From assembly GCA_003990765.1 (NCBI GenBank), contig RBNJ01000117.1, positions 1 to 40,787 on the forward strand: a DNA stretch of 40,787 nt, written 5' to 3'. A program made the position numbers and the translations under genes. This DNA comes from Jimgerdemannia flammicorona (lineage: Eukaryota). Under the pieces are notes generated by a model. That model had not been told where the DNA came from. It did no database searches and saw only the letters and a program-made list of their open reading frames with translations. Position 1 is the first letter of the stretch, and every line of letters starts with the position of its first letter. This document shows positions 1,131 through 27,510 of the stretch, piece after piece.

Positions 1131-1194
1131 GATCACCTATCAAACCTTGTAACTAGTAAGGTACATAGCAGAGAAAGGAGCATATTTTTGAAAT

Positions 1195-1300
1195 CTCAAT
1201 CTTTTTCAAAAACCTAACTATTATTAAAAATCTGATTTTTTTCAAAAATCTGACCTTTTTCAAAAATCTGATCTTTTTAAAAAATCTGATCTTTTCAAAA
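1195..1300. repeat. Short tandem array, ~18-19 bp unit TTTTTCAAAAATCTGA(T/C)C
   Basis: About 4-5 imperfect copies visible directly. Confidence 0.75.
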
Positions 1301-1489
1301 TAATCTTATTGAAAGATTTATTCTTTATATATCATTATCTATATCAAATCTTAAATATAGTTTACAAAGAGTATCAGTAAGATTGTTACTCAAATGAGAT
1401 TCTAATAGCTTAACAAAATCAATTAACATATAATTGAGTTACTAATTTTGACAAATCTAGTATATATTAATTCTAAGAAATATATATAT

Positions 1490-3068
1490 TGTTATATAGT
1501 AAGTATTAAGTTCTCCAAGTATATCAGATTCTCTTTAAGATATATCTCTTAGACTAACTATAAGTTTTTTATAAGTAAGTTCTATTGAAGTATCTTTCTA
1601 AGGTCTTATAGTCTTCAAACTTCTTATCTTTAAACTATTCTATTATCTCCTAAATTTGCTTGCTTGGAATTGAGTAGAAGACTGGAACTTCTGTACTTCT
1701 TGAGTAGTTGGGCACTTGAATGCTTGAGTGTTTTTAATACTTAACTACTAACTTTATTTCAAAAGAAATAAGAGGAGTATTTATATAAAATATAATTCAA
1801 TAATTGCTAAGTTATAAAACTAAATATAAATTCCAATAACCAAATAAGATATTTGAATACAGAAAACTTCAGATTATAAGTACAAATTTGAGTATCTATA
1901 TAATTGGTTATATAAGATCAGAATGCTGAAATAATTTCAATAGTTATATAAAGAACTTAGAGCAGAATGTTCAGAATCCTGAGAACTTCATCTTTGTTAC
2001 TATCATTAAGACTAGAGGTCAGAGACAGGATATCTTTGAAGAAAATAAGATTAGCAAACATTTTATCTATTTTACATATTTTGCATATATTGCACATTTT
2101 ATATATGTCAATTAGTGGAACAACATCATCATGTTTGATAGTAGTAGAGAGAGTAAGAAGATCAGAGGCTCTTTAATCTATAAGATTCTCCTCTACAAAG
2201 TAGGGGACAAAGGTATAATCTTGAGAGAGTCTAACCTGGATACTGGGGTCTTAGAATACTGAGATTAATCCTTACAGGAATTGATCTGGATTGTCCTAAA
2301 GGATGGGATTCCAGAACTCTTCTATCTTATCACTTTTGAGAGTAATGGTAGATTGAGCTTCTGTGGCCACCATAGTCTCCAGTATATATATCTGTACAAC
2401 AGGCTGACAATTTCTTAAAGTCTGAGACTCTAGTATACTCTAAGTTGGAAATTGACCAATATATATACCTGAAGATCTGATGGATTTTTTTGGCTACCCT
2501 CAATTTGCATATATTTATAGGAGTAGTATCTTATATCTCTTGAGAACTGGCCTGAGGGAATTTCTGGTAGAAGAGATTTCCTATTTCATATTTCTGTCAT
2601 ATCTAGAGATATTTGATAGTGATAGTAATCCTTATTTCCATTTTACAGCAGTAGAGGATAAAGTGATAAGAGTCACCAGTACTCAGGTTGAGGCTAGGAG
2701 TTCTTTTAGTACAGGTCCTCATAGCTCTCTTAATATCTTAGAATATCTTTTCTTAAACTGAGAAGCCTTGGTGATTCCTGGACCTTGAGGTTTAGCAGAT
2801 AGCAGGCATTTTATTTATAGTGAGTTTTTGAACTATTTCAGGATTTTGTGAGTCTTGTTTGAGTTGCTGCTACTGTAGTTCCTTAGTCCTTCTTTTATAT
2901 TTCTTGAGATGTCTATCTTGTAGTCATGATGACTTATAGTTAGTTATCATTACTCATCTTATAGTCTGGGTGAGTCATACCATATAATCTTCTTATATTC
3001 TAATCTGATAGCTTATAAGGAAAGACTGTCTTCTGTGATAATGTTACTATTCTGAGGTCACTGTTACC
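1490..3068 (-). repeat. 3' LTR of the Gypsy element
   Basis: Collinear with 9407-11010 (e.g. GTTCTCCAAGTATATCAGATTCTCT near both left ends, CTATTCTGAGGTCACT near both right ends). Minus-strand TATAAATA near 1780 and AATAAA near 1755. Confidence 0.93.
1957..2809 (-). pseudogene. Relic accessory ORF (~285 codons) inside the U3 region of the 3' LTR, unknown function
   Basis: Runs from ATG 2809 to TAA 1957 in one frame after removing a 4-nt TA slippage. Several internal stops correspond to CAA/TGG sense codons in the other LTR copy. Confidence 0.65.
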
Positions 3069-3930
3069 TCTTTCTCCTGAATAAGAATCTTCTCTTGAAT
3101 ATTTTTATTCATTGGTCTAGTCTGAAAAATTTACTGATCTCATAACCTCTGGCAGGGAGTTAAAAAGTGGTGTTTATGGGCTAATGTCTTTCTTATATAT
3201 TTTGGTATAATAGTGAAGAGTTACTTCCTTCATATAGAGCAAGGGCCTGATTCTGATCTTGACCAATCAGTTGATGGTTCAATTTCCTCTAGCTTTAAAA
3301 GTCTCATGAATAAGTAGTTGCTAGTGCCATATCCCTTAGAGAATGGTCTAGACAGATTGCTTGCTGATCACAGGATATGCTATTATGATTTGCAGACTAG
3401 AACCTCATGGGTAGTTATTATGTTTTACTTCTCTTATATAGGTTTATTGTACTTCTTGAGTCTATTTCTGTATACTATAGTAGGCAGTATAGTCTATGAG
3501 AGTTTTCTAAGCCAGAAGGTAGTTCTCTTGATATCTTGCATATAGAAGAGTCCTTCTCATTTAGGCTCTAGTTTTTATAATCATGAGATTTCTACTATAT
3601 TTTGATACAGTAGAATTTTTTCTCCAATTTGAATAAGTTCTAGAGTTTTGTAATTCTTTTCTATATTCTTCCTTATTAGTACTTGTGACTTGATGATGTA
3701 ATCTTTTACCTTCTTCCTGATTTAGTATAGTCTTCAGATTTCTGAGTCAATCTATTGTTAAGTTAGATCTAGATTTGTGGCTGAGATTCCATCAGAATCT
3801 TCTTCTCTGAAGAGTAGTTCTCTTAGGGTAAAGTTTGTACTCTGTGACTATATATCTCATAGGATAGAGAGAATAGTTGAGAGGTAGTTATCTCAATTCT
3901 TATATATATCTGAGATCTTAGCCAGAATAT

Positions 3931-4016
3931 TCTTGAGAGTCTTATTGGTTCTTTCTATCTGTCTATTTTCTTGAGAGTCTTATTGGTTCTTTCTATCTGT
4001 CTATTTTCTTGAGAGT
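3931..4016. repeat. Perfect 38-bp tandem duplication inside the integrase relic
   Basis: TCTTGAGAGTCTTATTGGTTCTTTCTATCTGTCTATTT twice plus a partial third copy. Confidence 0.9.
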
Positions 4017-6182
4017 GATATATAGTAGTCTTGATATACTGAATTTTGTATTTCTGATATATTATCTCATATAATCTATTAACAAATTCTGTGCTATAGT
4101 CTGTAGTGATTTGCCTTGGTATCTTATAGTGGCAGATGATTTCTCAATATAGGAAGTCAGTAATAGAGAGAGCATTAGCTTCTTATAATATCTCTGCTTC
4201 TATCTATTTGGTAAAGAGATCTATAATAACTATAATATAGTAGTTTCCTGATAAAGTTACTAGTAATAGTCTAATGATGTCCATTATGATGTAGTGGAAG
4301 GAGATAGGCTCAATTTTTGATGACCCAGATACCTGGTCTTGTTGATCTTATTTCTGTTTTTGGTACTTATCACATCCTTTAACAAATTGGTACAGATCTT
4401 CTTCTATCTTAGGCTACTATATAGTTCTTCCTGTCTTATCATATACATATATTTGTTCCTCTTAGGTATCCTTGTTCATATACTTTTTTCATTATTTGAT
4501 ACTTCTTATATTCAGATATGATGAGCTTTCCTCCTTTTCTGAGTGTGGTGTTGTTTAGTTCAAATTGTTTCCAAGTCTAGTTAATGATGGTAATAGTTCA
4601 GGGTTCAAGGTAGTTGAGTATCTCCCACTGCTCAAGATAGTTGATTAATCTATAATATAGCTTCTTATTCATATTGAATAGTCTTGATAGAAGTATTTTA
4701 GAGTATTTTTGAAAGTATATCAGTATTGGCATTAGTTTTTCTTGAGTAGTGTTTGATAGTACAGTCATACTCTTATAGTTTGTAGATCTATCTAGCATAT
4801 ATGTATTTCTTTGGGGTTCAGAGTGTGGAATATCCAGGTAAGAGCAGAATAGTCTGTTTGAATAGTGAAGTATTTTCTGACTAGATAGTAGTAGAACTTA
4901 TCTACTGCCCAGACTACTGCTAAGTATTCAAGCTTATATGAGTAGTTCTATTCTACTCTATGAGTACCTTGGCTTACATAAGAGATGATATATTCATATC
5001 TATCTTTCTTCTGAGCTAGTACTGCTCTAAGTCCTATAGTACTTATATTTATCTATAGGATGAACTCTAGATTCTAATCTGATCTTCTGAGAATGGGTGC
5101 TTGGGTCAATCTAGTCTTGAGTTTGTTGAAGGTTTCTTGACATTTATTGGTCTATTCAAATTTGATCTCCTTCAGTAACTCATAGATAAGTATTATAATA
5201 TTGAAGTATCCTTTGATGAATCTTCTATAGTAGGAGACCAATCCAAGGAAGACATAGACTTCTGTAGTTATTCTAAATCTTAGATAGACTACAACAGCCT
5301 CAATCTTCATAGAGTCTGTGTGAATTCCAGTCTGGTTGATGATGTGTTCTAGATAGGTAATTTTCTGAGCTATAAACTTATACTTCTTGGGCTTGATGTA
5401 GAGGCCATGCTCCTTGAGCTTCTTGAAGACTAGCTGTATGTGGTTGATATGTTTTAGTGTGATATTGCTGAAGATAATTATATAATCAACTTAGACAAAG
5501 AGTCATTTTCCAATTTCATTACTGAAGACTCTATTTATCATTCACTGAAAACTTACTGGGGTATTGTATATTCCAAATAGCATTCATAGATAGACATAGA
5601 TAGCATCAGATATAATAAAGGCTGATTTCTCACTGGTATCTTGAGTGAGACCAATCTGATGGAAGCCTGAGAATAGATCTAAGGTAGTGTAGTATTTGGC
5701 TTTAATTTCAAGGATAATAAGGATTTCTTGAATATTTGGCAAGAGCTGTCTATCCTTCTTAGTAATTGTATTGAGCTTTCTATAATCAATACAAAGTCTT
5801 AGGACAAACTCTCCAGACTTGCTTCCTTTCTTTAGAGCAAGGACAATGAGTGAAGCTCAGGGGCTGATAGCTTGCTTAATGATACTAGCTTCTTCCATTT
5901 CCTTAAATTCTACTTACAGCTATTCTTTATAGGCAGATGGTATGGTCTGGCTTTCTGGTAGATGGGCTTAGTATCACTGATGTCAACTTTATAGTAGTAC
6001 TTAGATTCTTGATTATGGATATCTCTGAAGTCTGTGACAAGTACTCCTTTATTTTAGTATAGAATCTTAAGAAGTTGTTCTTCTAGGAGAAAGTTTTCTC
6101 CAATGATATATGTGTGCTTGTTCTGGTTCTTGTCTTTCTTGTACTTGAGTTCAGTAATCTTAGTAGCAGTATAGGCTCCTCT

Positions 6183-6590
6183 TTCAGTAGATCCAAAGCC
6201 TTGTTCTTCTCTCTTAATCTTGATGAGTTCAATGGCTTCAGTGATCTTAGGCTTCTTAACTTCATAGATCCGTATCTGGCCAATCCTGTCATACTTCTTA
6301 ACTTCAAATAGGGTGATAGAGTTGTGATTCCTGACTATAAGAAAGATCTCACCAGTGTAATTAGGGTCAATAACTTCTCCTTTAACTGAGATTTCACTCT
6401 TAGCCAGACTACTCCTGATCTTGATAATTCTAGTATAGTTCTCTGGTAACTTGACTCCAATTCCAGTGCCAAGTAGAGTAGTCTGTGGTTTGAGGATAGC
6501 ATCTTAGATATTGATAAGATCTATTCCTACAGCTCCTTCAGTCTTGTATTCTGGGATCTTGGCTTTAGGGTGAAACTTCTTAACCTTGAG
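6183..6590 (-). pseudogene. dut: Trimeric dUTPase domain within pol, between protease and RT
   Basis: All five dUTPase motifs occur in order: LKVKKFHPKAKIPEYKTEGAVGIDL (I), RSSLA (II), GEVIDPNYTGEI (III), DRIGQ (IV), REEQGFGSTE (V). Confidence 0.93.
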
Positions 6591-7510
6591 AGTGATGTCT
6601 GGTTCTTATTTCTTCTTATCATTGCTATCAGCTTGAAGTTCTGAGGACTGGTCATCTTCTATAGCTTTCTTTTTTGCTTCAGCTACTTCTTACTTATATC
6701 TTTGTTGATAGATTTTACTAACTTCACTGATACAGAATCAGCAGTTATTTAGGTGTTTGGAGTAGTACATCCTAGCACTATGGGGGCATCTTCCTTAAGA
6801 GACATAGTTATCAATAATCTTTTTATACTACTACTCATCTGTGAGCTTAGTTGCCTTACTTTTGTTCTTATATACCAAGTGTATAAAGACTTCTGTATTC
6901 TCTTTATCTCCTTTCTCTATATCTAGTAGTACTTCTTTGTAGACATTGATAGAGACTTGTACCTTTCTTCCTTTATAGTTGATCTGCATCTTCTGGACAT
7001 TAAGATCAATAATAGTCTTGGCCTTATGAAGCTATTAGTTATCAATAAGGATATAATAGTTAGTGGCACTTATAATAATCATATCTATTGAGATAGTAGC
7101 TCCTCTAATCTTGATAGAGACTTCTCAGATCTTACCTAGGAGAGTAGCTTATGTATCATCTGTGGTGATATAGACCATTTTGGTAGATTATTTAATATTC
7201 CAGCCTAGGCAGTTAATTGCCTTCTTGCTCATGAGGTATCCTCCAGCACTGGTATCAATGATAGCATCAAAGATATAATCTTTAATCTAATATTAAGTAT
7301 AAGTTGAGGTCTTGTGCTAATCTTCATATTCTTTACCTGAGTCTTCTTATTTATCTTTCTATACATTATGAGCTTCTATAATCTTATATTCTTGGTTCTT
7401 GACAGTAGTTGCAAGTCTCACTCTAAACTACTATCTGAAGGCAGAGACTTCCACTAGTTGTCTATAAGTAGCATTGACCTTCTGTTCTTTGAGATCCTTA
7501 TAGATATTAT

Positions 7511-8110
7511 TTGTACTCCAAATGAGTCAATCTAGGTGGGATTTGAATCCCATCTGGATCAACTTGGATGAGATTCAAATCCCATCTGGATAGATTCGAA
7601 TCCCATTCAGATGGATTTGAATCAACCATTGTTTTGATTTCCAAATTAGACAATTAAATGTTTACATCAATAACTCGATGAATAATCATCTAAATTTGAT
7701 GATCTTAGTGTCATTTGAAAGCCCTTAATAAAGCCTTTCTAATGATACCAAGAATATTCAAATCGGATTACGCGTTGCCGAGATATTAAGGAAAACATTC
7801 TATTTGATGAAATTTTCAAAATCAGTGATTCAGATGGTTTCCTTTGTAACTCAGCAATGCATGATCCTATTTCAATGTTCCTGGTATCATTAGATAGGCC
7901 TTATTAAGGGCTTTCAAATAACACCAAGATCATCAAATTTGGATGATTATTCATTGAGTTATTGATATAAATATTTAATTGTCTAATTTGGAAATCAAAA
8001 CAATGGTTGATTTGAATCCATCTGGATGAGATTCAAATCTCATCTGAGTTGATCTAGATGGGAATCAATCTGAATCCAATTTAGATTAAATTGACTCATT
8101 ATAAGTACTA
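7511..8110. mobile_element. 600-bp non-autonomous hAT-type MITE/foldback element inserted in the Gypsy element
   Basis: Near whole-length inverted repeat with termini TTGTACTCCAAATGAGTCAA / TTGACTCATTATAAGTACTA. 8-bp TSD GATATTAT (7503-7510) / GATATCAT (8111-8118). Removing the element and one TSD restores the host frame KVHQYDIYKDLKEQKVNATY. Confidence 0.9.
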
Positions 8111-9406
8111 GATATCATACTGATGGACCTTGGTCTTGCACAGCTTCTATTCTTTCTTGCTTTCACTTTTTCCTAAGACTGAAGTAGTGCCTTCAATAAT
8201 TTGACAGACAGCTTCATCTAACTCTATGTCTTGATCAATCTCCTCAGGTTGGGTCTTACTTTGAATGGTAATAGTTGGGGTCTTTTTTGGTCTTTTAACT
8301 GGCTTGCTGTTACTCTTCTTATTATAGAGCTTGGACTAGATTCTGGTAGCTTTAGTAACAGGGTAGAATTCAGACTTCTTATAGTATTCTTTATCATCAG
8401 TATCACTAATCTCCTTAATGACTACAGCATTGGTTTGTTCTCTGGTTCTGATAGCATCACTTGGTTGAGCTCTATATCTTATTTTGATTATGCAATTCTT
8501 TATATAGTGGCCTTCTTCTCTATATTTAAAGTATATAATGATATATTCTACTATAGTAGCTACAAACTTCTACACTGGTCTCCTGTTGGTACTTTATACT
8601 TCTCTAACAACATCACTGAGGTATATAGTCATCTTGGCAAACTACTGGGTAAGTTCCTCTACTGGGTCAGCTTTGATCATCTTAGAGGTAAATGGAGATA
8701 GTTGTCTGTTGATAGCTATAGTAGATATGATACTAGTTGACTTTGATGGCTCCATTTTAATACTAGTTATTCTTTCCATTGAGTGTTTGGCAGAGTGTCT
8801 GGCAGTCTAATATCTCTATATAAAGACTACTTTCTAATCAAGAATTAGAACAGCTAGGGTAGATTAGATTACTAGGGTAATTTCATAGTAGACTCTTTTT
8901 AGAAAGGTTGAATCAGCTATCTATTCCTTGAGGGTATTATTATAGCTAGCTAAGACAGATTTGGGTGTAGAATAAGTTGGGGTCTTTATTGAGTCCTTGG
9001 TAGATAGAATTGAGTTGATCTTTGAGAGCTTACTTGATCTCTTCAATATAGTATGTAGTTCTGAGAAAGTTCTTTATATTAGTGAGTTTGGCTGCACCAT
9101 ATCAGCAATAGTGGCTATATTGAACTTATCTCTGGCAGGTCCTCTGAGGCTGACTAGTATATAAAAGGGCCAATTGTACTTCTATAATGAGAGCTTGTAT
9201 AGTAGCAAATTATTCAAAGTCTTCAATGAAGATTAGAATTGACTCTTCAGTAGTAAATCTATAGAATATGAGGGGATACATTTCTATCTTGTCTTGAATT
9301 TTTACAGGGTGACTTTTGTAGTCAGAGTAGTTGTTGTGATAATTATTCATTTTTTAGCTTGAAAGTAAGGAATCCTAATAGTATTACTAGTCAATAAGTA
9401 CCAAGT

Positions 9407-11010
9407 TGTCATATATTAGACATTAGTTCTCCAAGTATATCAGATTCTCTTCAAGGTATATCTCTTAGACCAACTATAAGTTTCTTATAAGTAAGTTCTA
9501 TTGAAGTATCTTCTCAAGGTCTTATAGTTTTCAAACTTCTTATCTTTAAACTGTTCTATTATCTCCTAGATTTGCTTGCTTGGAATTAAGTAGAGAACTA
9601 GAACTTTTATACTTCTTGAGTAGTTGGACACTTAAATGCTTGAGTGTTTTTAATACTTGACTACTGACTTTATTTCAAAAGAAATAAGAGGGGTATTTAT
9701 ATAAAATATAATTCAATAGTTACTAAGTTATAAAACTAAATATAAATTCCAATAATCAAATAAGATATTTGAACATAGAAAACTTCAGATTGTAAGTACA
9801 AATTTGAGTATCTGTATAATTAGTTGTACAAGATCAGAATGCTGGAATAATTTCAACAGTTACATAAGATCAGAATACTAGAATAATTTCAATAGTTACA
9901 TAAAAAACTTAGAGCAGAATGTTCAGAATCCTAGAGACTTTATCTTTGTCACTATTATCAAAACTAGAGATTGAAGACAGGATATCTTTGAAGAAAATGA
10001 GGTCAGTAAACATTTTATCTATTTTGTATGTTTTATATATATCATGTATTTTGTGCATATTAATTAGTGGGACAATATCCTCACTGATGATATCATCATA
10101 TTCAGTGGTGGCAGAGAGAGCAAGGAGATCAAGGGCTTTCCAATCTATGAGGTTCTCCTCTACAAAGTAGGGGACAAAAGTGGGATCTTGAGAGAGTCTA
10201 ATCTGGATACTGGGACCTTGGAATACTGAGATTAATCTTTGTAGGAATTGATCTAGATTGTCCTAGAGGATGAGATTCCAGAACTCTTCTATCTTATTAC
10301 TTTTGAGAGTGATACTTCTGTAACCACTATGGCCTCCAGTACATCTGTACAGTGGGCTGATAATTTCTTGAAGTCTGAGACTCTGATATACTCCAAGTTG
10401 GAGATTGATCAAAATATATGCCTAAAGACCTGATAGATCTTTTTGACTACTCTCAATTTGCATACATCTATAGAGGTGATATCTTATATCTCTTGGAGAC
10501 TGGTCTGAGAGAATTTTCAGTAGAGGAGATTTCCTATTTTGTATTCATATTATATCCAGAGATATTCAGTAGTGATAGTGATCCTTGTTTCTATTTCATA
10601 GTAGTAGAGAATAAGTAGTAAGGGTTACCAGTACCCAGGTTGAGGCCAGAAGTCTTTCTAGTATAAGTCCTCATGATTCTCCTGATATCTTAGAATATTC
10701 TTTCTTAAATTAGTAGTTCCTGAACCTTGAGATTTGATGAGCAGTAGGCATTTTATTTATAGTAAGTCTTTGAACTATTTTGAGATTTTTTGAGTTTTGT
10801 TTAAGTTGCTGCTACTGCAGTTCCTTAGTCCTTCTTTTATATTCTTTATGATATCTATTTTATAGTCATGATGATTCATAGTTGGTCATCATTGCTCATC
10901 TTGTAGCCTAGGTAAGTTATGCTGTATGATCTTCTTATACTCTGATCTAGTAGCTTATAAGGAAAGGCTGTCTCCTATAATGATATCACTATTCTGAGGT
11001 CACTATTACA
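9407..11010 (-). repeat. 5' LTR of the Gypsy element
   Basis: Bounded TGTCA...TTACA and collinear with 1490-3068. Carries an extra copy of a 36-bp unit near 9830-9900. Confidence 0.93.
9909..10751 (-). pseudogene. Second copy of the LTR-borne accessory ORF
   Basis: The C-terminal ~115 codons are stop-free: DNLDQFLQRLISVFQGPSIQIRLSQDPTFVPYFVEENLIDWKALDLLALS...SRILNILL*. Confidence 0.65.
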
Positions 11011-13429
11011 ATATATTAAGTAATATCTATATATAATAGTGAAGAATATTTAATCAGATATATTCTATTTTCAAATAAAAAATTAAAATGAGATTAATTT
11101 AAAGCTAATCAACTTTGAAATATTTGAATTCATATTCAATATTAAAATATAGCATATTTTTTTTCTTTTCAAAAGTAGATGTCATAAATATCTATACTTT
11201 CTTGATGTAGATAATTTATATAATAAGTTTTTGAAATAAATCCTTAAACTGTAGCTTTTGTTGACCAGTATTGAGATCACTGGGTAGTGTGGAAATATAC
11301 TCTTTTAAGAAGATGAGATCTCAATAATAATATTAGTCTATGAATAAAATTATTATATCTATATCTATATATAAATTCCTATATTAACCACTAATATTCA
11401 TACCACCTCCCCCCCCTCCATTTCATATCATATATTATACTCCTCTATAATTATATCCAGTATGAAACAATTGCTAGTATTTATAAAACCAAAGTAGTAG
11501 AAAACCTAAATATGATGAAATTCTCTCAATCTATATTATCTATAACTATCATTGGCAATGTCCTCTCCCCTCATCCTCCTCTATCTCCCTTTCTGTGATT
11601 GCTAGCACTATGGTATTGAAATTTCCTACTTACTATAGAATAAAAAAAAAAAAAAAAAAAAAAAAAATCAAGAGGCTAGCATAAGACACATAATTCATAC
11701 AGTGATTTTTCTAAAAATCCTTCTATCTTCTACTGTTGCTCAGCCCTCAAATTGCCAAAAAAATTATTGTATCTTTCTATAGCTACTAGTGTTTACTAAT
11801 AAATATTCAATAATATACTATACAAGATCTTATCACTCAAAATAGTTGATCTATAAGATTGATTAGAGTAAAAAACTACTAATATATCAGATTCTAAGAG
11901 TACACCAAAACTATATATAAGATTATAGAATAAGCCATCAGATTTTAAATTACATTATCTACTATGTTTTATGATATAAAGTAAAACTAGTAATATATCC
12001 TCATTAATATACATAGATGAGCTAGTATAGTATCTAAAGAATATATTACTGATCTTAGCAATATCTTGCTCAAAGTTGAACCCTCCAAGCTGAAAGCATA
12101 CCTTATATTGAGTTTGATCTAGCTGACCTCTATCAATTATAAGAAGATTTATTACAGATTTTTGAGATATTACTGCAAGATCATCTAAGATCAGAGATTA
12201 CTGATAAAGAATGTCAAATTGTTGAAGAATAAGTTAAAGAAGGAGTTTGTGTCTATACTCAGCAAGAGATTGTAAAGAGAAGTAATGCTATTTTCATAAC
12301 TATTATCTCATATTTCTCATACTAATTTTGCTCAATTTTCAGTTTAAAATTACTAATAGAAGTAATATAGTAGTATATTCTCTCTACAAATGACAATATA
12401 TAGCCAGCAGACATATAAAGTCCTGTTTCTGCCCTAGTCTTACCATATAATTCTGCCTGATAAAGTATAAATGCCTTCTTATAAATATTAGTCAGAACAT
12501 ATATGACTTAGTTTTTAAGTATTTTATACCAGATAGTAAGAATGACTTCATTTATAGTAGCATCAAGAATAATGTGATTATAGGTTGAATCTAGAATTCC
12601 CATAGAAATTGCAGAAGAATCCAATAGTACCACCATATAAAATCAATCTTATTTGTTTTTTTCAGATAATTTGACAGAATATTATCATCCAATTATAGCT
12701 GGATCTTAGGTGTAGAGTATTGGCTGAATTTCTGAAAAATTGAGGAGTAGAGTATACTATACTTTGAAATTCTTAGTAGCTGGAATTCAAAACTGAGACT
12801 GAACAAATCTATACTTTGACTCTTACTGATAATGCCACTAGTCTTACTGCTGAATCAGAAATTCTCCAATCACTTCTTCCTAGGATTCTTCTTATTGTCT
12901 TTTAAAAAATTATTACAAGTTACCAAAATACCAAATAATTATTTTACTAAAAGCCTTCAAGGAATGAACCCAATTTACCTACCCTATATATAGACAAAAG
13001 CAGTTAAATTTAGTCATAAATCTGCTTCCCAGTTAAGGTCAGGCTAGATGGAAACTGGAAGTACCACAACTCTACTAAACTACACTGCTCTGGGCTTTAG
13101 AAAGTCTCCTGTAGGGCCTCAATACTACAATCCAAATAAAGGATATATGCTAGAGAGTTTAAAAATATCTACATATTATTCTTATAGAGGGGCTGAGAAA
13201 AGTTTAGAAGACAATCTTCAGTAGCAGTAGCAGCCCAGAGTATATCAGCAAATATTATAGCTCATTCAGAGATTCATATGGATTATCACTGGTCCAGACA
13301 AAATTGTCCAGTATAGTAAGACTGGGTATACAGAATAAGGAGAATTATCAGATCAGTAGAGATAGCAGTAAATATCACTACAGATGACTAGCACCCCTGA
13401 GTCTCCAGGACCTGGGCCATAGATATAGG

Positions 13430-13726
13430 TCCTGAGGCTGGCTGTAAGAGGTCTGCTTCCAAGGAGAATGGACATATATATAACAGTACAGACCAGGGGG
13501 CAGTGCCACCTCTCAGCCAGCCTTAGAGATAGCATAGGACCAGCTATAAGAGATCTGCTATCACAGAGAACAGATATACAATAGTATAGATCAGGGGACA
13601 GTACTGCCCCCCAACTGGCTCCAAAGTCAGCAAAAGAATCCAGAGGCCCAAACCCCAAGACTGGCCATAAGAGGTCTACTACTATAGAGAATAAGATATA
13701 TAATAGTATAGGTTGAGAGACAGTAT
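13430..13726 (+). repeat. Cluster of three ~60-bp motif copies, shared with 19760-20220
   Basis: Consensus (G)ACTGGCTATAAGAGGTCTGC..GAGAACAGATATATAATAGTATAGATCAG at ~13435, ~13540 and ~13660. Confidence 0.75.
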
Positions 13727-16267
13727 CACTCATTGCTTTCAAGTCCTGCAAGCTGGCCCTAGCTGAATAAAAGCTAGCTACTCATGAGAAGGAACTACTA
13801 GCAATAATATATGCACTAAACTACTGGTGATGCTACCTAGAAGGTATTGAGTTTGATGTCATTACTGATCATCAATCCCTCAAGTATATCAATACCCAAC
13901 TTACTCTGCCATATCTATAAGCCAAGTAGAGCCTCAAGCTTCAAACCTTCAACCCAATGATCATCTACAAGTCTGGTAAGACACTTATAGTACCAGATAC
14001 CTTATCAAGATATCCAGACCTCACCACAATCATACAAGTCACCTTGGCATCAGAATTCCTAAACAAAATCAGACAAGCTTATAAAGAAGATACAGTTGTC
14101 ACTAGAGTTTTCTCAAACAAACTCAAGGATATATATACTGTTGAGAACAACCTAATCTGTCATGAAGATCAAGTCTATCTATCTGAAAACATGAACCTAT
14201 ACTACAAGGTTTTGCAAGAACACCATGACTCCCCTCTTGCTGGTTACCTGAAAATTGAGAAGACTGTCAAGAATATCCAACACTGCTACTATTGGCCAAA
14301 CATGGTCAAGGAAATCAAGAACTATATTGTCAGCTGTGATCTATATCAGTGTAATAATTCTACCAACCAAGTGCCTGCTGGTTTGCTACAACCACTACTA
14401 ATTCCTACCAAGAAGTTCAAGTAAGTCACTATGGACTTTGTAACTCAACTACCATGAACTCAATCTGGTACTGATGCTATTATTGTATTCATTAACCACC
14501 TGACTAAGACTATGGTTGCTGAACCAACCACTACTAATGCTATCACACCTGAGATTATAAGAATCTTCTTTAAGTCTATCTTCTATCACTATGGTCTACT
14601 ACAAGTAATTGTCAGTGATTGTGACCCCAAGTTCACCAGTCACTTCTGGCAAATCCTCTTCAAGACTCTGGAAACCCAATTGGCTATATCTACTGCCTTT
14701 CACTCACAAACTGATGGACAAACTGAGTACATGAACAGAACTCTAGAACAAATGCTTAGAAACTATGTTTCTTATGAGCAAGATAATTGGGACATCTACC
14801 TAACTTATGTGGAATTTGCATACAATAATGCTGTCCAATCATCTACTGGTCTTTTCCCTTTCTGGTTACTCTATGGTCAAGATCCTGAGACCTCTGCAAG
14901 TCTATTCCCTTTCAAGAAAACCAGTCAAATATAAGTTCCAACTGCCAAGAACCTTATAGACAAAATGGATGAATTACTCAAGATTGCTACCATGAATCTT
15001 TAGAAGGCTCAATAGCATCAAGCCAAGTATACTGACAAGAAACACTATGATGTCACTTACACTGTTAGAGATTAAGTCCTACTGTCTACCAAGAACCTCA
15101 AGATATAATCTCAAGTCAATCACTCTTCAAACAAGTTCCAACCCAAGTATATTAGACCTTTCAAGATCACTGAACAAGTCTCTGCATCCTCCTACCATCT
15201 CAAGCTACCTGAAACCATGAGAGTACACCCAGTCTTTCATATGTTATACCTCAAGACTTGGAACCAGTCACCACCCTACTCTGGTCAAATTCCTAAGCCT
15301 TCTGCCCCTATAATTATCAAAGACCATATTGAGTATGAAGCTGAGAAAATCCTTAACAAACAAATCTGCTACCACCATCCTGAATATCTAGTCAAGTGGA
15401 TGAGTTATCCTAAATATGATACTACCTGGGAACTACTGGTCAATCTCAAGAACTCTCAAGATCTAGTTTAAGACTTTGAGGCAAAACACATTGTCTAATC
15501 CCTATAGTGATTGTCAATGACCTATGGCAATGACCAATGTCTTATACATCAGAAGTTTACTTTGGGACTCCAGAACCAGCTGAACATTTAATGAACAAGA
15601 AGTCTACTGAAATGAAGCTACTAGCTGGGTTCGAACCCCTCCCAGTTGGTTACATAGTCTGGTAATAGGCCCTCTGCCCTATATAAGGATGGCCAATCCC
15701 TGCCAATGCACCAATTCAAGTTTGAGAAATTTTGGTTAAGTATATCTAGTCTTATATTACCTAAGAACTCAATGAGAATGTTGGTTCTTAAGGAGGGAGG
15801 GATATAACAATTTCACAGTCATATTTAGTCTTAGTATATTTTTGCATCTTTTAGTTAGTCTTTTCTTATTATTTCTTGAACATTCTACTATATTCTGTCA
15901 CCTTTTTACTTACTTAGAAACCTTCTCTTAGTACTCAGATACCACCAGAACATTTTTGTCTTTCCTTGGTACTAAGTATCTTGTTTTAGCTAGTTATGGA
16001 ACCTTTCAGAACATTGTAGAATAGTATTAGTCAGCTTTGCCAAGAACCTATTTCTTGGTATTTCTCTTTCTTTCTAAGATCCTTCTAGATATTTCTTTCA
16101 GATTATATATAAATATTCTTATTCTCTGCCTGAATAAAGCTCAGAATATTTTCTCCCAGAAATCCTTTGAGAATACTTAAACCTTTAAGTATCTCTTGGG
16201 GCTACTTTAGGCCAACCAGAACTTCCAGATTTAGCCACTTCCTCTTAAAGAAACTAGAACTGTTATA
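13727..16267 (+). mobile_element. 5'-truncated chromovirus (Ty3/Gypsy with chromodomain): RNase H tail, integrase, chromodomain, PPT, 3' LTR
   Basis: RNase H tail THEKELLAIIYALNYW..DVITDHQSLKY. Integrase zinc region HDSPLAGY..YYWPNM..CDLYQ and core IVSDCDPKFTSHFW..FHSQTDGQTEYMNRTLEQMLR. Chromodomain EYEAEKIL..EYLVKWMSYPKYDTTWE. PPT AAGGAGGGAGGGA ends at 15802, and the LTR runs ~15803-16267 with mutated TGTAAC/GTTACA ends. Confidence 0.92.
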
Positions 16268-18317
16268 GATAGCTTCTTATTAGTATAAATATCCCCTCCC
16301 TCAGACCTCAGAAACTCAGACTTAAATAATCCAAATATACAACAACTCCTGAATACTTTTCCACAATATTTCTTCACACAACTACTCCTAATATAGTAAT
16401 ACTATAAATAGTGAATAAATCTATTTAATAACTACAAACTACTCTTAAGTAAATCTGAATCCTGTTAGATCCCACTCCTAACTATATTACAAAATTTTCT
16501 AATTGGGTATTATCTGCAGTAATATACTAATTCAACTAAGCTGGTCTTAGTGTCTTAAACTTTCTGAAATATAGAAAATCCTGAAAATTCAGAACTAGTT
16601 TGAAAAAGGACTTTGGTTAAGATGTTAACTTAATCTTGAAATTGATAAGCATAGAGGACATACTCCATATAAAATTGATCTTGACCTTGAGAAAACAGTC
16701 TTCCAGAATATCCAGAACTTTTAGAAAACTCTTTCAGAACTACATAACAGTACTTTTATAAGTAACTCTCTTACAAGGATTATAGTGTCAAATACATGCA
16801 TGAGGAGGAGAAGAAGAAGGATAGTAGAGACTGGTCAATCTCAAAATAGGTTCAGTTTGAAGTAAGTATCATTAACTTCTAATATATAGGTTTTTTTATA
16901 GTGGTGTGGGCAATGGATGGCTTATGGTAGGGTGGGTTTTAGCTGTATAAGTAGGGCTAGCTAGATATTGGCTCTTTGTTTTTAAAGAGAGATGATAGAT
17001 AGATATACAGAAGAAGTTGTTAAGATGAGAGAGGTTGATGGGAGATTTGCTGACAGAGTGGTGGGTTGGTTAGAGTCCCCAGGGTGGGTAATGTTGCTAT
17101 CTGATAGAAGGAATCTGTGAACAGAGTAGTGGGTGGGTGGTGATAGTGAATGATAAAGTAGTCTTTTATCAAAAAAGAGTAAGAGGGGATGGAGAGGGGT
17201 CTAGGGGGATCAGATAGGAGTGGGCACAGTATATTTTATAGAGGATAGATGGGTGTATTAATAAAGAAAGGAGTCCAAGTGATTAAAAAAAATAAAAAAA
17301 ATATATAGATATTTTTTATTGACTATTATAATACATAATTCTAGCATTTTTTTTTTCTTCTTCTATAGCTATGCAAATTCCCTCCCATCTACACCCCTAC
17401 CTGCAGTATTTTGAAAAATGCTTAACAGCCATCACAGTATAACCAATCTCAGTACAATCAGAGTAAATCTTTAATATTACCAATTCTCCTACCAATAGTA
17501 CAGAAAATTACCCAGATAGAGAAATATAAGGTCACTATTACAGAGGTGATAAATTATCTATCACTGGACCAGTTTTCTACTTTGAGGGATGAATATCCAT
17601 CTGAGGATCTTGTGAAGCTATTTAGTACCCTCTGAGATATAATATAGAAAGCTGGTGTAACTTTCTATATAGGTAAAGTTAATAGTATAATTCTGCTATT
17701 GTTAGCTATGAGGTAGTTTGAACACACTCTCAGAGGGTCAGAGAAATGTCAATATCATCAATAGATCAAATAACACTTTGAACCTGATACTATTAAATTT
17801 CTCTCTGAGATCAGTTCAACTTAGTTTAATAAGAATGTTAAAGAAAAACCATCTCTTAAATATAGAACTCCTTATTTCTATATATATATTATATTTGAAT
17901 TAGTATATATATAAAAGATAATAAATTAATTATAGTATATATATATTTGCTACTGTAGATTATATGTCAATTAAAATTTTATTATTGATTCCTATTTTAT
18001 ATTCTGTATATAGCAGATAGAAGTATTTTTATCTAATGACTTTATAGTAGGTTCTTATGGCTTATCTACTTCTATTGGTCTGATAAATTTCTTTTTTCTC
18101 TGAGATATCTTCTCTATATTTTCTATAAGCTATGAGATATACTATCTCTCAGTTAATCACTCTTACTACCTATTCTCCTCACTGGTATTACAAAGTACAG
18201 TATAGCTACTGAAATCTCCTTATTATCACCCAGTCTTACTATTACTACTAATCTGTTTTCACATATATATATATATATATACCTTGATGATAATTGGATT
18301 TGTATATTGGCAGATAT

Positions 18318-18386
18318 CAGTATTCACTATAGCAGGTTGTTCACTATGACAGATTGTTCACTACAGATTATTCACTATGACAGGTA
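18318..18386. repeat. Short tandem array T(G/A)TTCACTATGACAG(G/A)T, ~4 copies
   Basis: Visible directly; possibly subterminal repeats of a DNA transposon. Confidence 0.7.
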
Positions 18387-18894
18387 TGTAATTTGATAAT
18401 AATCTGTCTCATGTTTGAATTATAATAATAATAATATAATCAAAACTAACTTAGCAGAGTTGGGTATAATATGCTGACTCTGCAATAATGTCAAAATATA
18501 TAATACAGATATTTTATAGAAATAAGGTCTAGAATGTATATATATATATGTATATATGATAAACTATAGTTACAGGATGTAGGCTGATAGCATAGTGATG
18601 ATAAAAAGCTTACAAATATCAATAGCAGTATTCTAAAGATAGCTAATATAGACTGGTAGTATGGGTTATGTAAAATATTGAGTAGTATACAAGCTATATA
18701 GGATCAAAAGAAAGTTAATGATAGGTGAAGAAGAAAGTTATCAGATTGATAAATATAAGTCAGTGAACATACTAAGAGATCAAAGATAAAAATATATATA
18801 TCAGCTTAGTGGTCTACATGAATTAGCAGTTTATTTTATATTTGATAGTAATTAGAAATTATATCATCACTGAGCATTCCAATAATAAATATAA

Positions 18895-19497
18895 GATCCT
18901 CTCTGCTGAAATCTTCTCTACTGAAGTCTCTTATGCTGAAGTCCTCTATCAAAGTCTCTCCTCTACCAAAGCCCCCTCTGCCAAAGTCCCCTCTGCTGAA
19001 GCTCCCTCTGCTGAAATCTTCTCTACTGAAGTCTCCTATACTGAAGTTCTCTACCAAAGTCTCTCCTCTCTACCAAAGCCCCCTCTACTAAAGCCTCTTC
19101 TGTTAAAGTCTTCTCTGTTAAAGTCTCCTCTACCAAAGTCTCCTCTACCAAAGCTCCTTCTGCTGAAGCCTCCTCTGCTGAAACTTTCTCTACTGAAGTC
19201 CTCTCTGCTGAAGCCTCCTTTACTAAAGCCTACTCTGCTAAAGCTCCTTCTGTTAAAGTCCCCTCTGCTGAAGCCCCCTCTGCTAAAGCCTCCTCTGCTA
19301 AAGCCCCCTCTATCAAAGTTCCAACAAAGTCTTCTTTACTAAAGTCTCTTTTGCTGAAGTCTCTTCTGCTAAAGTTCTGATGAAGTCTCTTCTACTAAAG
19401 TCTCTTTTACCAAAGTCTCCTCTACTGAAGTCCTCTTTACTGAAGTTCTCTCTATTGAAGTTCTCTCTACTGAGATTCTCTTTACCAAAATCTCCTA
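18895..19497. repeat. 15-bp minisatellite (consensus ~AAGCCCCCTCTGCTG/AAGTCTCCTCTACTA), roughly 40 units
   Basis: Periodicity seen directly; it explains the repetitive ORFs 18842-19342 and 18836-19057. Confidence 0.9.
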
Positions 19498-19569
19498 CTA
19501 GTAGTCTTGCTACTCAACTATAGTCTCACTGCATAACTATAAGCTGGCAAACAATGAGCCAGTAAATGA

Positions 19570-19722
19570 CATAAATATGGTAGATATGAATATGGTAGAT
19601 ATGAATATAGTGAGCATGAATATAGTGAGTATAAATATGGTGAGTATGAATATAGTAAGTGAGTATAAATATAGAGAGTATAAATACAGTATATATAAAT
19701 ATAGTAAGTATAAATATAGTAG
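19570..19722. repeat. 15-bp minisatellite ATGAATAT(G/A)GTGAGT, ~10 units
   Basis: Visible directly. Confidence 0.85.
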
Positions 19723-19759
19723 ATAGTTTTATAGATAGAGGCCTCAGTAGTATACTAAA

Positions 19760-20220
19760 GACTGGTTATAAAAGGTCTATCTCTAGAGAGAACAGATATA
19801 TAATAGTACTGATCAGGAGACTAGGCTACTTCTGACTAGTCTCATAGATAGTAGTAGAGTCTTAACAGTATGGAGCCTGAGTAGTATAGAACCTCAGTGG
19901 CATAGAATCTTGGCAGCATAGAACTGGTGTCCATATATCAGAGACTGGCTATGAGAGGTCTGCCTCCAGAGAGAACAGATATATAATAGTATAGATCAGA
20001 GATAGGACTACCCTCTGATCAGTCTTATAGAGAGTAGTAGAGCCTCAGCAGTATGATAGTGTAGAGTCTTGGTGGCAAGAAGTCTTGATGGTACAGAGCC
20101 TCAGTGGTATAGAATCTTGATAATATAGAACTGGTGTCTATATACTAGAGACTGGCTATAAGAGATTTACCTCCAGAGAGAACAAATGAATGATAGTGCA
20201 GCAGAACTACTCTCTAACCA
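19760..20220 (+). repeat. Three ~185-205-bp tandem units containing the same ~60-bp motif as 13430-13726
   Basis: AGACTGG(C/T)TAT.A.AG..CT..CTC.AGAGAGAACA at ~19760, ~19943 and ~20150. Confidence 0.8.
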
Positions 20221-20846
20221 GCCTCAGTGGCAGTGATGGTGCCAATGGTAGTAGAGCCAGGCAGTAGAGCCAGACAGTAGAGCTAAGTAGTGGATATATG
20301 AAAGTTCTGATCAAAAAACCCCAAATTTTACCTGATAAGAAAAGAAGTATTAGGAATAAGGCAGTTAGAGTGAGAGAAATAAGACAGTTAGTAGTGGGGA
20401 GATATAAGAGATCAAAATGAGTGAATGAAGCAAAAGAGTATATTGAATTGTGGGAAGTTAAAAAAAGATGTTAAAAAAGATTGTAGAATGACTCAACATT
20501 ATCTATCTAAATAAGAAGATCAAATGACAGTCAAAATAAGTAAAATGAGATAGAGTGAGATGAGCAGATATCTGATAGAATAAAGATTGAAATGAGTAAA
20601 ATAAGTAAAAACAGATAATTTACCTAAAGTCATCAACAATAATGTCTAGTTTCAAAAGACAAAAAAGATCTTTCAGCTCTGAATTTTTAACAACTATAAA
20701 AGACTAGCTATCATAGATAATTCAGTAAAGTTTATCTTGAAATAACTTTATAGAGAATTTTGACTATTTAGAGAATTATTAAGTAGTAATGAATTAATAA
20801 TAAGAAAAGAAAAAAAAGTAGATAAGTTATATAAAAACTATACTTT

Positions 20847-20883
<37 letters not shown>

Positions 20884-20893
20884 AAAAAAATAT

Positions 20894-20924
<31 letters not shown>

Positions 20925-20949
20925 ACTCTATTGCTTCTGTTTGATAACT

Positions 20950-21376
20950 CTTATAAAATTTGTTATAAATTTGTTATTGAGTCACCAATAGTCTTATATG
21001 ATATTTTACAATGATTATATTTGATTTGAATATCTTTATTTTCCTTATACTCCTTTGTAAACTTTTTCTAAATATTAGATTATTCTTGTACTTTTTCTTT
21101 TCCTTTCTCAGATGAGATTATACTTATTAAAGTTAGACTTATTGAAGCTAGACTTATTGAAGCTATATCTGATATTGAGGCTATTATTATAATATCCTCT
21201 ATAGAGAATATAAAAGATATAAAAGATATAATTACTTTAGAAGAATATATATATATATTGTGAATTATATTGTATGTATTTAGAATTACCATATTTAGTT
21301 TTAAATTTGAATTTTAAATTCAAATTGATTCAAATTAAATTGACTCTCAATTTAATTTAATTCATTCTAAGCACTA
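20950..21376 (-). mobile_element. 5' end of a hAT transposon: TIR plus relic BED zinc finger
   Basis: The minus strand begins TAGTGCTTAGAATGAA at 21376, similar to the MITE terminus TAGTACTTATAATGAG. Its translation E*SNI*KKFTKE..IQIKYNHCKISYKTIGDSITNL* restores by transitions to a BED pattern (RSxIWxxF...KCxHC...GGSTTNLW). Confidence 0.7.
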
Positions 21377-21638
21377 GTACTAACTAATCTTAACTTCTTA
21401 TTATCATCTATATTACTTTTCTAAATACTTTTCTCACTTCTTTTTCTTTAATACTATTAACTCTATATTAATTTCCTTATTAACTATCACCACTACTCTA
21501 CTAACTCTCCAACTTCAAACCACCTCTCTCTCTCAAATACTCATCTTTAATATACATACTACTATAATTCCACAATTCTCTCTAGTCTTCTCCATATTAC
21601 CAACATCTTCTAACAGCCTTCAATAAGAGTCACCTCCA

Positions 21639-21768
21639 ATAGAGAAGAGGTGGAGGGAAGGAAGTGAATTGAGATAGGGTAGGGTAGGGTTGGATTGGGC
21701 TACCAGTGTGGTATGAGGACCATGTATTTGTTAATAAAGAAGCCATAGACTCAAGGGGGGAAAAAAAA
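21639..21768 (+). mobile_element. 130-bp 5'-truncated retroposed insertion (LINE 3' end) with poly-A tail and 14-bp TSD
   Basis: AAGAGTCACCTCCA at 21625-21638 and 21769-21782. The insert has AATAAA at ~21733 and ends in an A tract. Confidence 0.85.
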
Positions 21769-22143
21769 AAGAGTCACCTCCACTATCTCTCTTACTCTCT
21801 AGCACCTCTCTCCCCAATACTTCTCCTTCTGAGCACTAATCACCATTGATCTCAATATATCTATTTAATCTGATACTTTCTTACTAAAGATGTAAATAAT
21901 AACATATGATCTGCATCTGTCAGGATAAAGATGACCTCATCTCTAAGAAAGATAAATTGGCAGCATTCAACTCAAGGTACAAGCAGAGAAAAACTGGGCA
22001 ACCGACCCGCAACATCAAACATGCTGCACAATGACCACAACGTAATCACTCCTACACTGATATCCTTATCTCTGATCCACCACCGTCATCCGAGTCCAAT
22101 AACTACTCAACGACGAAAGCGACCTACCACGATCCTTACTGCA

Positions 22144-23698
22144 CTACAACTCCCGCAACATCCGCTCCCTCCACTTGCGCACAGTTCTCGTGATCTCTCC
22201 GTAGTTGTCCGACCCGAGATTGTGGCCCTGCGCCTTGACGCACTGGAAGACTGTGTAGTAGAGATTGTCGGCGGGTTGAGTTCTGTTTTGAGGAAAGGGA
22301 GTGAGAAGGGAAGTTAATCGTTGGACAAGCGACTCTACGTTCTGTTAACGGGTGGATTGGGAGTGTTTGAATGGCTGAACTATAGGCCAAAATGCGATAC
22401 ACACGTGTATTTCCCGTCGGTGGTGATGAACAAATACTCGCCGACGACGAAATCGGGAGAGAGGTCAAAATACTGGGCAACTGTGATAGCGTGCGGGTGC
22501 AAGAATCAAAAGAACCTATATCAGCATTGTCTTTTTTCCATGACCCATTCCGATCGTCAGAAACCCGTCAATCAAATAGAATACAATAGAGAGATACCAA
22601 CAATCGCTGAGCTCGACGTCGAACCAGCGCGAGTGGTAGTGCATTTGGGCGGGATTGTCGGTGAAACCGACCGAGAAGCGGATACGCTTTGGAGCGTAGA
22701 TCGGATCCCTAAGGAGCGTAAAAATACATGTGAGAGGGAGAGGTGTGTGTAAATCCGAATGATCATCGATGGTATTATTCCCAATACTAATTGTGTAGTG
22801 CTTGACATACCCTAACTGCCAGATCGCCTGTGATAATTGGTTAGAAATAGAAGAGGGATCGAAGGGCGGAAACGCGCGGGTGAGCTTTCAAAAATCCCAT
22901 CTAATATTTGCCACAACCACCTAGAACCTCCGAACGACCTTCCACGTCGATATCTCTTACCCTGTACGGGATAATTTCAACCCCTCTCACGATGCACATG
23001 CCGGTCATTTTGTAGCAGAGCCACTCGCGCGAGTCCAGATTTCCAACCTCGCCTGACATACTCCCCGTGCTGCTCCAGAATTTTGTGGGCCGGTTTTCGA
23101 ATAGGGTTTGCTGAATGTCCTGGCAGTATACGTCGTCCGTTGTGCTCGCCGCTAGGCCAGAGTGGAGGAGGGTCGGGAAGGTTGTGGGTGTGTTCGGAAC
23201 GGCGGGGCGCGACGGCGGGACGACGCACTTGGTAAGCGAGACTGTGATGGATGGAGGGGTAGAGCGGTGTGGGTGAGTATGATGTGATGCGATGGGTACG
23301 GCGATCGTGCACAACTTGGAGGAAAAGAAATGTTTTTACTAACGATTTTGCTTGCAGAATGATTTGGGATGCCTACAACAGGAGACGAACTGTCCTCTCA
23401 ATCCCATCCTCTTCGAGCAAGCCACTGACGGGTCCGTCTCGGACCGGCGGCGGAGGAGTTCGTTAGAATAATGATTACTCAACGTCTCCAGCTCCTCCGC
23501 GCTGACGGGCACTCCGGGCGTGAACTTCAACATGTCGCCTTCCGGATCAAGGCAGAGGGCGCTCCAGACGTCGGGGGAGTAGGCAATCTGGTTCCAGAGC
23601 TTTGAGACGGCCGACGCGCGGGCAATACTTGAAAAATTTAGGAAGGAGAGGGTATGGAAGGAGATTTCCGTTGGCAGGGTAGCGAAAGGGTCTGGCAT
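22144..23698 (-). CDS. F-box protein, At4g00755-like family (F-box plus C-terminal beta-sandwich domain), multi-exon
   Basis: F-box DPFATLPTEISFHTLSFLNFSSIARASAVSKLWNQI. Spliced C-terminal domain ASTTDDVYCQDIQQTL..FWSSTGS..EWLCYKM..EIIPYR/AIWQLG/DPIYAPKRIRFSVG..GKYTTQPADNLYYTVFQCVKAQG. Stop TAG at 22144. Confidence 0.85.

Positions 23699-25789: not shown

Positions 25790-27510
<1,721 letters not shown>

Follow-up and report, generated by a model that had tools for sequence, protein, structure and literature searches.

A block of about 21 kb in the genome of Jimgerdemannia flammicorona, a fungus of the Endogonales (Mucoromycota), has lost nearly all of its CpG dinucleotides and has been hypermutated from C to T, mostly at cytosines outside CpG and at rates set by the base on their 3' side. 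The block lies on contig RBNJ01000117.1 of assembly GCA_003990765.1, the 40,787 nucleotides of which are the window analyzed here, and it holds a complete Ty3/gypsy retrotransposon, element 1, whose two long terminal repeats (LTRs) carry a record of the changes. The outcome is similar to what repeat-induced point mutation (RIP) produces. Such a C-to-T pattern has so far been described only in ascomycetes and some basidiomycetes, and here it is found in an early-diverging fungus.

The LTRs of a retrotransposon are copied from one template at insertion, and all differences between them therefore arose afterwards, in the chromosome. We aligned the two LTRs of element 1 (1491-3067 and 9408-11009; 1628 columns, 77 of them gap columns) and found that they match at 1315 columns and differ by 230 transitions and 6 transversions, with a transition/transversion ratio of 38 at a divergence of 15.2%. 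This spectrum rejects ratios of 2:1 (P = 1e-32) and 4:1 (P = 8e-16). As in canonical RIP, the changes were almost exclusively C:G to T:A transitions. Derived states were found in both copies (121 in copy A, 109 in copy B) and on both strands (95 top-strand C/T and 135 bottom-strand G/A changes), close to the composition in C and G. With the ancestral base of each transition taken to be C or G, we infer 226 C>T events, of which 22 were at reconstructable CpG, 112 at CpA (CpA in one copy and TpA in the other), 61 at CpC, and 31 at CpT. The first-pass annotation of this DNA had described the LTR differences as mostly C/T and G/A changes, many of them outside CpG, and the alignment bears this out, with 204 of the 226 events at non-CpG sites; an excess confined to CpG, one of the two outcomes it had named as refuting its proposal, does not describe these data. 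Neither LTR copy retains a CpG. At 11 sites one copy reads TG and the other CA, the trace left when the two copies of a CpG decay independently of each other, indicating that CpGs existed at insertion and that all of them have since been lost.

The neighboring bases were then compared at LTR sites with an identical 3' base in both copies. The share of differing sites was 56% for CpA (112/199), 42% for CpC (31/73), and 13% for CpT (31/239), with Fisher P values of 3e-22 for CpA against CpT and 2e-7 for CpC against CpT. When the 5' and 3' neighbors were set side by side, the share by 3' base was 0.53 for A, 0.44 for C, and 0.11 for T, whereas the 5' base had a small effect (A 0.31, C 0.42, G 0.39, T 0.28) in which T was mildly protective. 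Measured against 0.0019 transversions per site per copy in the LTR pair, the rates were elevated about 257-fold for CpA (118-701), about 162-fold for CpC, about 37-fold for CpT, and at least 1000-fold for CpG. The order of contexts is thus CpG >> CpA ~ CpC >> CpT, and the earlier framing of the pattern by CpA, the hallmark of Neurospora-type RIP, had to be given up, as CpC is about level with CpA and CpG is far ahead of both. Adjacent double differences were in trans (CT in one copy, TC in the other) in 28 cases and in cis in 2 (P = 9e-7). Such an excess would be expected if each newly formed T protected the cytosine 5' of it and, less strongly, the cytosine 3' of it.

The same context rule was replicated 8 kb from the LTRs, in a minisatellite of 36 units of 15 bp. 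Written in purine/pyrimidine letters, 32 of the 36 units are identical and the other four have one mismatch each, so the units differ almost only by transitions. Positions 11-12 never read CG (TG in 17 units, TA in 11, CA in 8). At the CpT-type positions 5, 7, and 15, the C or G is kept in 28, 28, and 31 of 36 units, whereas at the TpG position 9 the G is kept in 17 of 36. Survival at the C positions 1-4 alternates, with the C retained in 13, 29, 16, and 23 units, respectively. As the units arose from one another by duplication, these counts are not independent events. The minisatellite lies within an open frame of 166 codons (18842-19490) that encodes pentapeptide repeats rich in A, P, S, and K and gives an Extensin_1 match too weak to pass the Pfam cut-off. 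The minisatellite may once have been a repeat within the coding sequence of a gene or a transposon gag. For the foldback arms and the tandem units of 183-207 bp elsewhere in the block, the transition:transversion ratio was just 1.5-4:1. Their copies were possibly non-identical at origin, and they were accordingly left out of the rate estimates.

The composition of the whole block carries the same signature. In 1127-22002 we counted 8 CpG against 557 expected from its own C+G content (Poisson P ~1e-225), and relative to the number expected at gene-like composition about 0.6% of CpGs survive. On the gene side of the window (22003-40787), the count was 1148 against 1088 expected, an observed/expected ratio (o/e) of 1.06. 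The block had a GC content of 0.33 and a TpA o/e of 1.04, against 0.48 and 0.68 on the gene side. The surviving cytosines of the block are concentrated in CpT: the o/e of CpT/ApG was 1.49 block-wide (1.36-2.07 over block subregions) compared with 0.89 in genes. The near-absence of CpG and the abundance of TpA noticed in the first-pass annotation were thus upheld. As for the limits it had proposed, 1300 and 22000, the right one proved sharper than claimed, with no CpG in 21601-22000 and 13 in 22001-22200, whereas the left edge had to be moved to near 1127. The right border is sharp to a few bases and lies about 130 bases past the last minus-strand open frame of the gene with the F-box-like exon, with no CpG gradient into that gene. 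To the left of the block, the first 1126 bases are in an intermediate state, which may represent an early stage of the same process, in which CpG is lost first, or a spread from the block.

Two composition indices are in common use for RIP, with thresholds of TpA/ApT > 0.89 and (CpA+TpG)/(ApC+GpT) < 1.03. When calculated as the first-pass annotation had suggested, they gave divided results. TpA/ApT was raised, at 1.06 in the block and 0.66 in genes, and passes its threshold as in RIP. The second index was not lowered, at 1.16 in the block and 1.17 in genes, and gives no RIP signal; in this respect the block is unlike canonical RIP DNA.

The coding remains of element 1 were examined through the read-through frame of reverse transcriptase (RT), RNase H, and integrase (831 codons), which was aligned with 60 homologues of 33-40% identity. 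These 60 were drawn from 101 homologues that reached 900 residues or more, among 120 listed (28-43% identity) out of 663 hits. The frame contains 39 stops, nine of them in columns where at least 70% of the 60 homologues agree. Four of the nine replace W or R (TGG to TGA or TAG, CGA to TGA); the remaining five replace Y, N, L, L, and V and need transversions. No conserved Q column, at the same agreement among the 60, had turned to a stop. The claim that conserved Trp, Gln, and Arg codons are repeatedly stops is therefore borne out only in part, for Trp and Arg in four of nine cases and for Gln in none. At the 173 columns with at least 80% agreement, the element matches the homologues in 102 and differs in 71, and the most parsimonious codon changes at these 71 columns amount to 43.8 C>T plus G>A, 3.0 T>C plus A>G, and 47.2 transversions. 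The asymmetry among the transitions supports the C>T direction, although as evidence it is supportive rather than clean.

The host was placed by an exon of LYS1 on the gene side. Its protein is 99% identical to one of J. flammicorona, followed by Endogone sp. at 86% and then by Mucorales at 77-81%, in agreement with the first-pass suggestion of a Mucoromycota fungus. Ordinary RIP of a Pezizomycotina host is thereby excluded, the host lying outside the lineages in which RIP is established. Overall, the first-pass observation is confirmed in a stronger form than it was given, and its interpretation holds in part: the hypermutation and the host are right, and a repeat-directed mutator is a candidate.

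The explanation we favor, to which we give about an even chance, is a hypermutator of cytosines in double-stranded DNA, working after insertion and choosing its targets by the 3' neighbor as a methyltransferase does, with a RIP-like outcome and a context signature of its own. Elements would insert, and their double-stranded DNA would then undergo context-dependent C-to-T hypermutation, with both strands and both LTR copies affected about equally. The 3' base sets the rate: CpG has gone to completion, some 30-40% of CpA and CpC sites have been converted per copy, and CpT has largely been spared. Each new T would shield the C on its 5' side, so that runs of C or G would decay in an alternating pattern. 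The agent would be an enzyme of the DNMT1 superfamily (DNMT1-, DIM-2-, or RID-like) working on silenced transposon DNA, which may either deaminate directly or deposit dense CG and lighter non-CG methylation that later deaminates. What results resembles RIP, in that the block is rich in AT, carries stop codons, and ends sharply at the adjoining gene. Since reading of the 3' neighbor is the habit of C5-cytosine methyltransferases and of RIP, a DNMT1-superfamily enzyme is the most likely agent. In this account the data establish the spectrum of the mutations, their polarity and context rule, their timing after insertion, and the host, while the class of the enzyme is an inference.

The literature offers partial precedents for such a hypermutator. 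The nearest mechanistic model is the Dim2-dependent mutator of Zymoseptoria tritici, as described by Moller et al. 2021 (PMC8016269): it is methyltransferase-linked, mitotic (without meiosis), and confined to methylated transposon DNA, where C>T transitions make up >95% of the changes, and the block here is likewise transition-dominated with C>T in transposon DNA. Phycomyces, which belongs to the Mucoromycotina, the subphylum of the host, is reported to encode DIM2 and DNMT1 and to carry transposons methylated at CG and CHH (PMC11258239). The Dim-2 clade also occurs in early-diverging fungi according to a review that cites Bewick et al. 2019.

Several observations weigh against this explanation. 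The main evidence comes from one LTR pair and one minisatellite on a single 41-kb scaffold, and the enzyme class was deduced entirely from context logic. The signature fits no described enzyme. CHG and CHH sites (H being A, C, or T) did not differ (33% and 36%), so no plant- or Phycomyces-like sub-context was seen. The polarity test in pol used distant homologues (33-40%) and also infers about 47 transversions, which are mostly family divergence and AT-biased. No strand-coherent mutation tracts were detected in the LTRs (runs tests, z from -0.05 to 2.1); single RIP events give strand-coherent clustering, unlike the LTR pair here. Six CpG persist inside the block in one arm of a foldback insertion, which is hard to reconcile with purely regional action at a steady pace unless the foldback inserted recently. 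According to a table in a review (PMC13297926), DIM-2 prefers CpT, the context that suffered least here. The mutator of Zymoseptoria, for its part, is reported to target CA and not CG (PMC8016269), and here CpG was erased. On the tempo and trigger of the process, the evidence leans both ways. A homology- or episode-based process tends to be favored by the abrupt border on the gene side, by the very low age that transversions indicate, and by the CpG-keeping foldback arm. Steady regional action tends to be favored by the 9 kb of unclassifiable DNA that bear the same signature, by non-CpG loads that are graded among neighbors all devoid of CpG, and by the lack of strand-coherent tracts.

The strongest competitor, which we consider unlikely but to be taken seriously, is a true RIP analogue, that is, a homology-triggered, premeiotic process acting on duplicated DNA only, in bursts during sexual cycles, through a RID/Masc1-like or other dedicated enzyme. 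Bursts would suit the very high C>T load at near-zero transversion divergence, and a duplication-sensing process would be expected to hit both copies of a linked 1.58-kb duplication equally and to leave a base-sharp edge without a gradient into the gene. The short 207-bp foldback arm could escape with its six CpG if homology were sensed only above a certain length, and partners would be at hand for nearly every element in a genome with >77% repeats, as stated in PMC10386755. Such an analogue accounts poorly for the roughly 9 kb of the block that bear the same signature without recognizable repeat or transposon identity. The LTR pair lacks strand-coherent tracts, and neighboring elements vary in non-CpG load while all are without CpG, which resembles gradual accumulation. 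Moreover, Amselem 2015 (PMC4352252) found RID-dependent RIP in no group other than Ascomycota, and RIP-like signatures were likewise limited to Ascomycota in the kingdom-wide screen of Badet and Croll 2025 (PMC12543289).

Two further explanations fit less well. A single-strand cytosine deaminase, AID/APOBEC-like or related, might edit transposon DNA or reverse-transcription intermediates, and the nearly exclusive C>T/G>A changes would agree with it, as would the dUTPase carried by element 1 (PF00692, E 1.5e-18), given that retroelements use dUTPase against uracil in DNA. We regard this as improbable. Known AID/APOBEC deaminases read the 5' neighbor, whereas the rate here depends on the 3' neighbor and hardly on the 5' neighbor, with CpG the fastest context. 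Neither 5'-neighbor targeting nor a one-strand bias was found: editing of minus-strand cDNA would give one-strand G>A changes mostly common to both LTRs, and both strands and both LTRs were symmetric. Editing before integration or of reverse-transcription intermediates is ruled out by the same symmetry. Very improbable, in our judgment, is ordinary decay, in which CpG-only methylation, spontaneous deamination, and neutral AT-biased drift would have worn down old DNA. CpG loss is indeed the strongest component of the pattern, and transposon CpG methylation is reported from Mucoromycota relatives. CpG-only decay is nevertheless excluded by the 204 of 226 events at non-CpG sites, and the CpA>TpA rate, the sharp context rule, and the transition/transversion ratio all speak against ordinary decay. 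By the account of PMC13443276, Gigaspora keeps its methylated CpGs, with 58.8% of CpG sites highly methylated. Neutral drift by itself is ruled out by the same ratio, the spectrum tests, and the CpA rate. Two kinds of chemical damage were also considered. Ultraviolet-type damage, which prefers dipyrimidines, is ruled out by the mild protection that a 5' T confers. Alkylation-type damage, which prefers CpY, fits in part only, since CpC is affected yet CpT is spared.

The hypermutator we favor would stand apart from each known system while sharing features with several. With RIP, as it occurs in Neurospora crassa and in further Pezizomycotina, it shares changes that are almost all C:G to T:A, that affect the two strands and the two copies of a duplication, and that are governed by the 3' neighbor with CpA as a good target; the AT-rich block left behind likewise carries stop codons and is sharply bordered by an intact gene. 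The Mucoromycota host and the order of contexts set it apart from Neurospora, where CpA comes first. In most fungi CpA is the preferred context according to the RIPCAL abstract. In Z. tritici, CA accounts for >98% of the C>T changes and CG escapes, as reported in PMC8016269, whereas here CpG was erased first and CpC was about equal to CpA. RIP-like C>T change outside the Pezizomycotina, with lineage-specific contexts that include CpG, has been described in Pucciniomycotina as TpCpG hypermutation of transposons (Horns et al. 2012, PMC3318451), and dinucleotide signatures were tied to Dnmt1 subfamilies in the ten Dikarya genomes presented by Amselem et al. 2015 (PMC4352252). These examples come from Dikarya, with TpCpG as the Pucciniomycotina target, unlike the present one, in which a 5' T is mildly protective and most events are non-CpG. 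The block also shares TG/CA footprints with the decay of methylated CpG by deamination in vertebrates and CpG-methylating fungi, as seen in the 11 trans pairs and in the excess of CpA/TpG in element 2 (o/e 1.25), and differs from it in the total loss of CpG and in the larger non-CpG component. The 2025 kingdom-wide k-mer screen (PMC12543289), which presents RIP-like signatures as unique to Ascomycota, analyzed only scaffolds >50 kb, and the present scaffold, at 40.8 kb, is under that limit. Our literature searches returned no report of such hypermutation in Endogonales or Mucoromycota.

The features of the window are collected in Table 1. Element 1 was recognized as complete by its paired 1.58-kb LTRs with TG..CA ends, a purine run resembling a polypurine tract, and the pol order protease-RT-RNase H-integrase; its flanks are (AT)n, so that a target-site duplication is compatible with the sequence and no more than that. 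Its dUTPase domain, located between protease and RT, has one stop in about 130 codons, far below the rest of pol. The foldback insertion within element 1 has arms that differ by 19 transitions and 6 transversions. Its left arm (207 bp) holds six of the eight CpG of the block, and the right arm reads TG or CA at five of the aligned places. Element 2 has fewer stops, a GC content of 0.38, and a single CpG; neighboring elements of the block thus vary in non-CpG load though all are without CpG.

Table 1. Features of the 40,787-nt window, with positions, strand, and the evidence for each
Feature	Position	Strand	Evidence or details
CpG-free AT-rich hypermutated block	1127..22002	.	CpG count, GC 0.33, CpT/ApG o/e 1.49
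Left flank, intermediate state	1..1126	.	GC 0.48, 12 CpG (o/e 0.17), TpA o/e 1.06
Surviving CpG of the block (8)	6271; 7597, 7676, 7764, 7771, 7773, 7779; 15632		
Element 1, 3' LTR (LTR-A), starts TG; full extent 1490..3068	1491-3067	-	LTR alignment; purine-rich run resembling a polypurine tract just inside
Element 1, internal region, Ty3/gypsy	3069..9406	-	Pfam on read-through frames
Element 1, RVT_1, RNase H, rve	3418-5910	-	Pfam on read-through frames
Element 1, Asp_protease and dUTPase	6150-7370	-	Pfam on read-through frames
Foldback insertion in element 1 (like a miniature inverted-repeat transposable element)	7592..8040	.	449 bp; arms 7592-7798 and 7834-8040
Element 1, CCHC-like gag remnant	near 8533	-	
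Element 1, 5' LTR (LTR-B), TG...CA; full extent 9407..11010	9408-11009	-	LTR alignment
Element 2, 5'-truncated chromovirus	13702..16131	+	Partial RNase H, Integrase_H2C2, SH3_Tf2-1, Chromo
15-bp minisatellite, 36 units	18897..19490	+	Self-comparison in purine/pyrimidine letters
Gene side, normal CpG	22003..40787	.	CpG o/e 1.06
F-box-like exon	23342-23818	-	
LYS1 exons	about 25793-27498	-	
Long helicase-like gene	about 29383-38448	+	

Recognizable transposon features account for about 12 of the 21 kb, and the remaining 9 kb or so have the same composition and signature. The description of the whole as a 21-kb transposon block is therefore sound for the former part and finds no recognizable identity in the latter. 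Pfam searches of six read-through frames returned no family in 1-1127, 11010-13702, 16132-18881, or 19500-22003. The unclassified AT-rich parts contain long poly(A) tracts at 11650-11665 and 20850-20925, possibly the tails of relic non-LTR retroelements. One copy of a 66-nt unit is present at 13529-13594, immediately upstream of element 2, and a tandem array of three copies (period 183-207) in 19751-20206, a distribution that suggests LTR fragments of one family flanking the minisatellite. In metagenome contigs, a degenerate LTR motif gave 0 matches to relatives of the element, and an integrase-based search gave 28 patterns, none of them confirmed by tblastn.

On the gene side, the plus-strand region at 29383-38448 is a run of long open frames of up to 446 codons, with only a short UvrD-helicase match (PF00580, E 1.4e-5) and no homologues in the searches made, and is probably one very large gene of an unknown family. 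Within it, the open reading frame at 35965-37209 had no usable ESM Atlas match, and that at 37267-38445 had no longer homologues.

For practical work on this genome, dating of LTRs by total divergence would be badly wrong here, as the 15.2% overall compares with 0.39% when only transversions are counted, and repeat finders will miss the degraded copies. There is also a paradox in the host itself: the genome of J. flammicorona, given as 240 Mb in reviews and as >77% repeats in PMC10386755, carries a mutator that kills transposon copies. A strong hypermutation signature in the Endogonales for which CpG-only decay does not account would raise anew the question of how early mutagenic genome defence appeared in the history of fungi. 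It is possible, although we hold this only tentatively and think the opposite likelier, that the Endogonales, and perhaps the Mucoromycota widely, possess a dedicated repeat- or heterochromatin-directed defence hypermutator with a signature unlike those described for RIP or Dim2. If so, mutagenic silencing by the DNMT1 superfamily would predate the Dikarya, or would have arisen once more independently.

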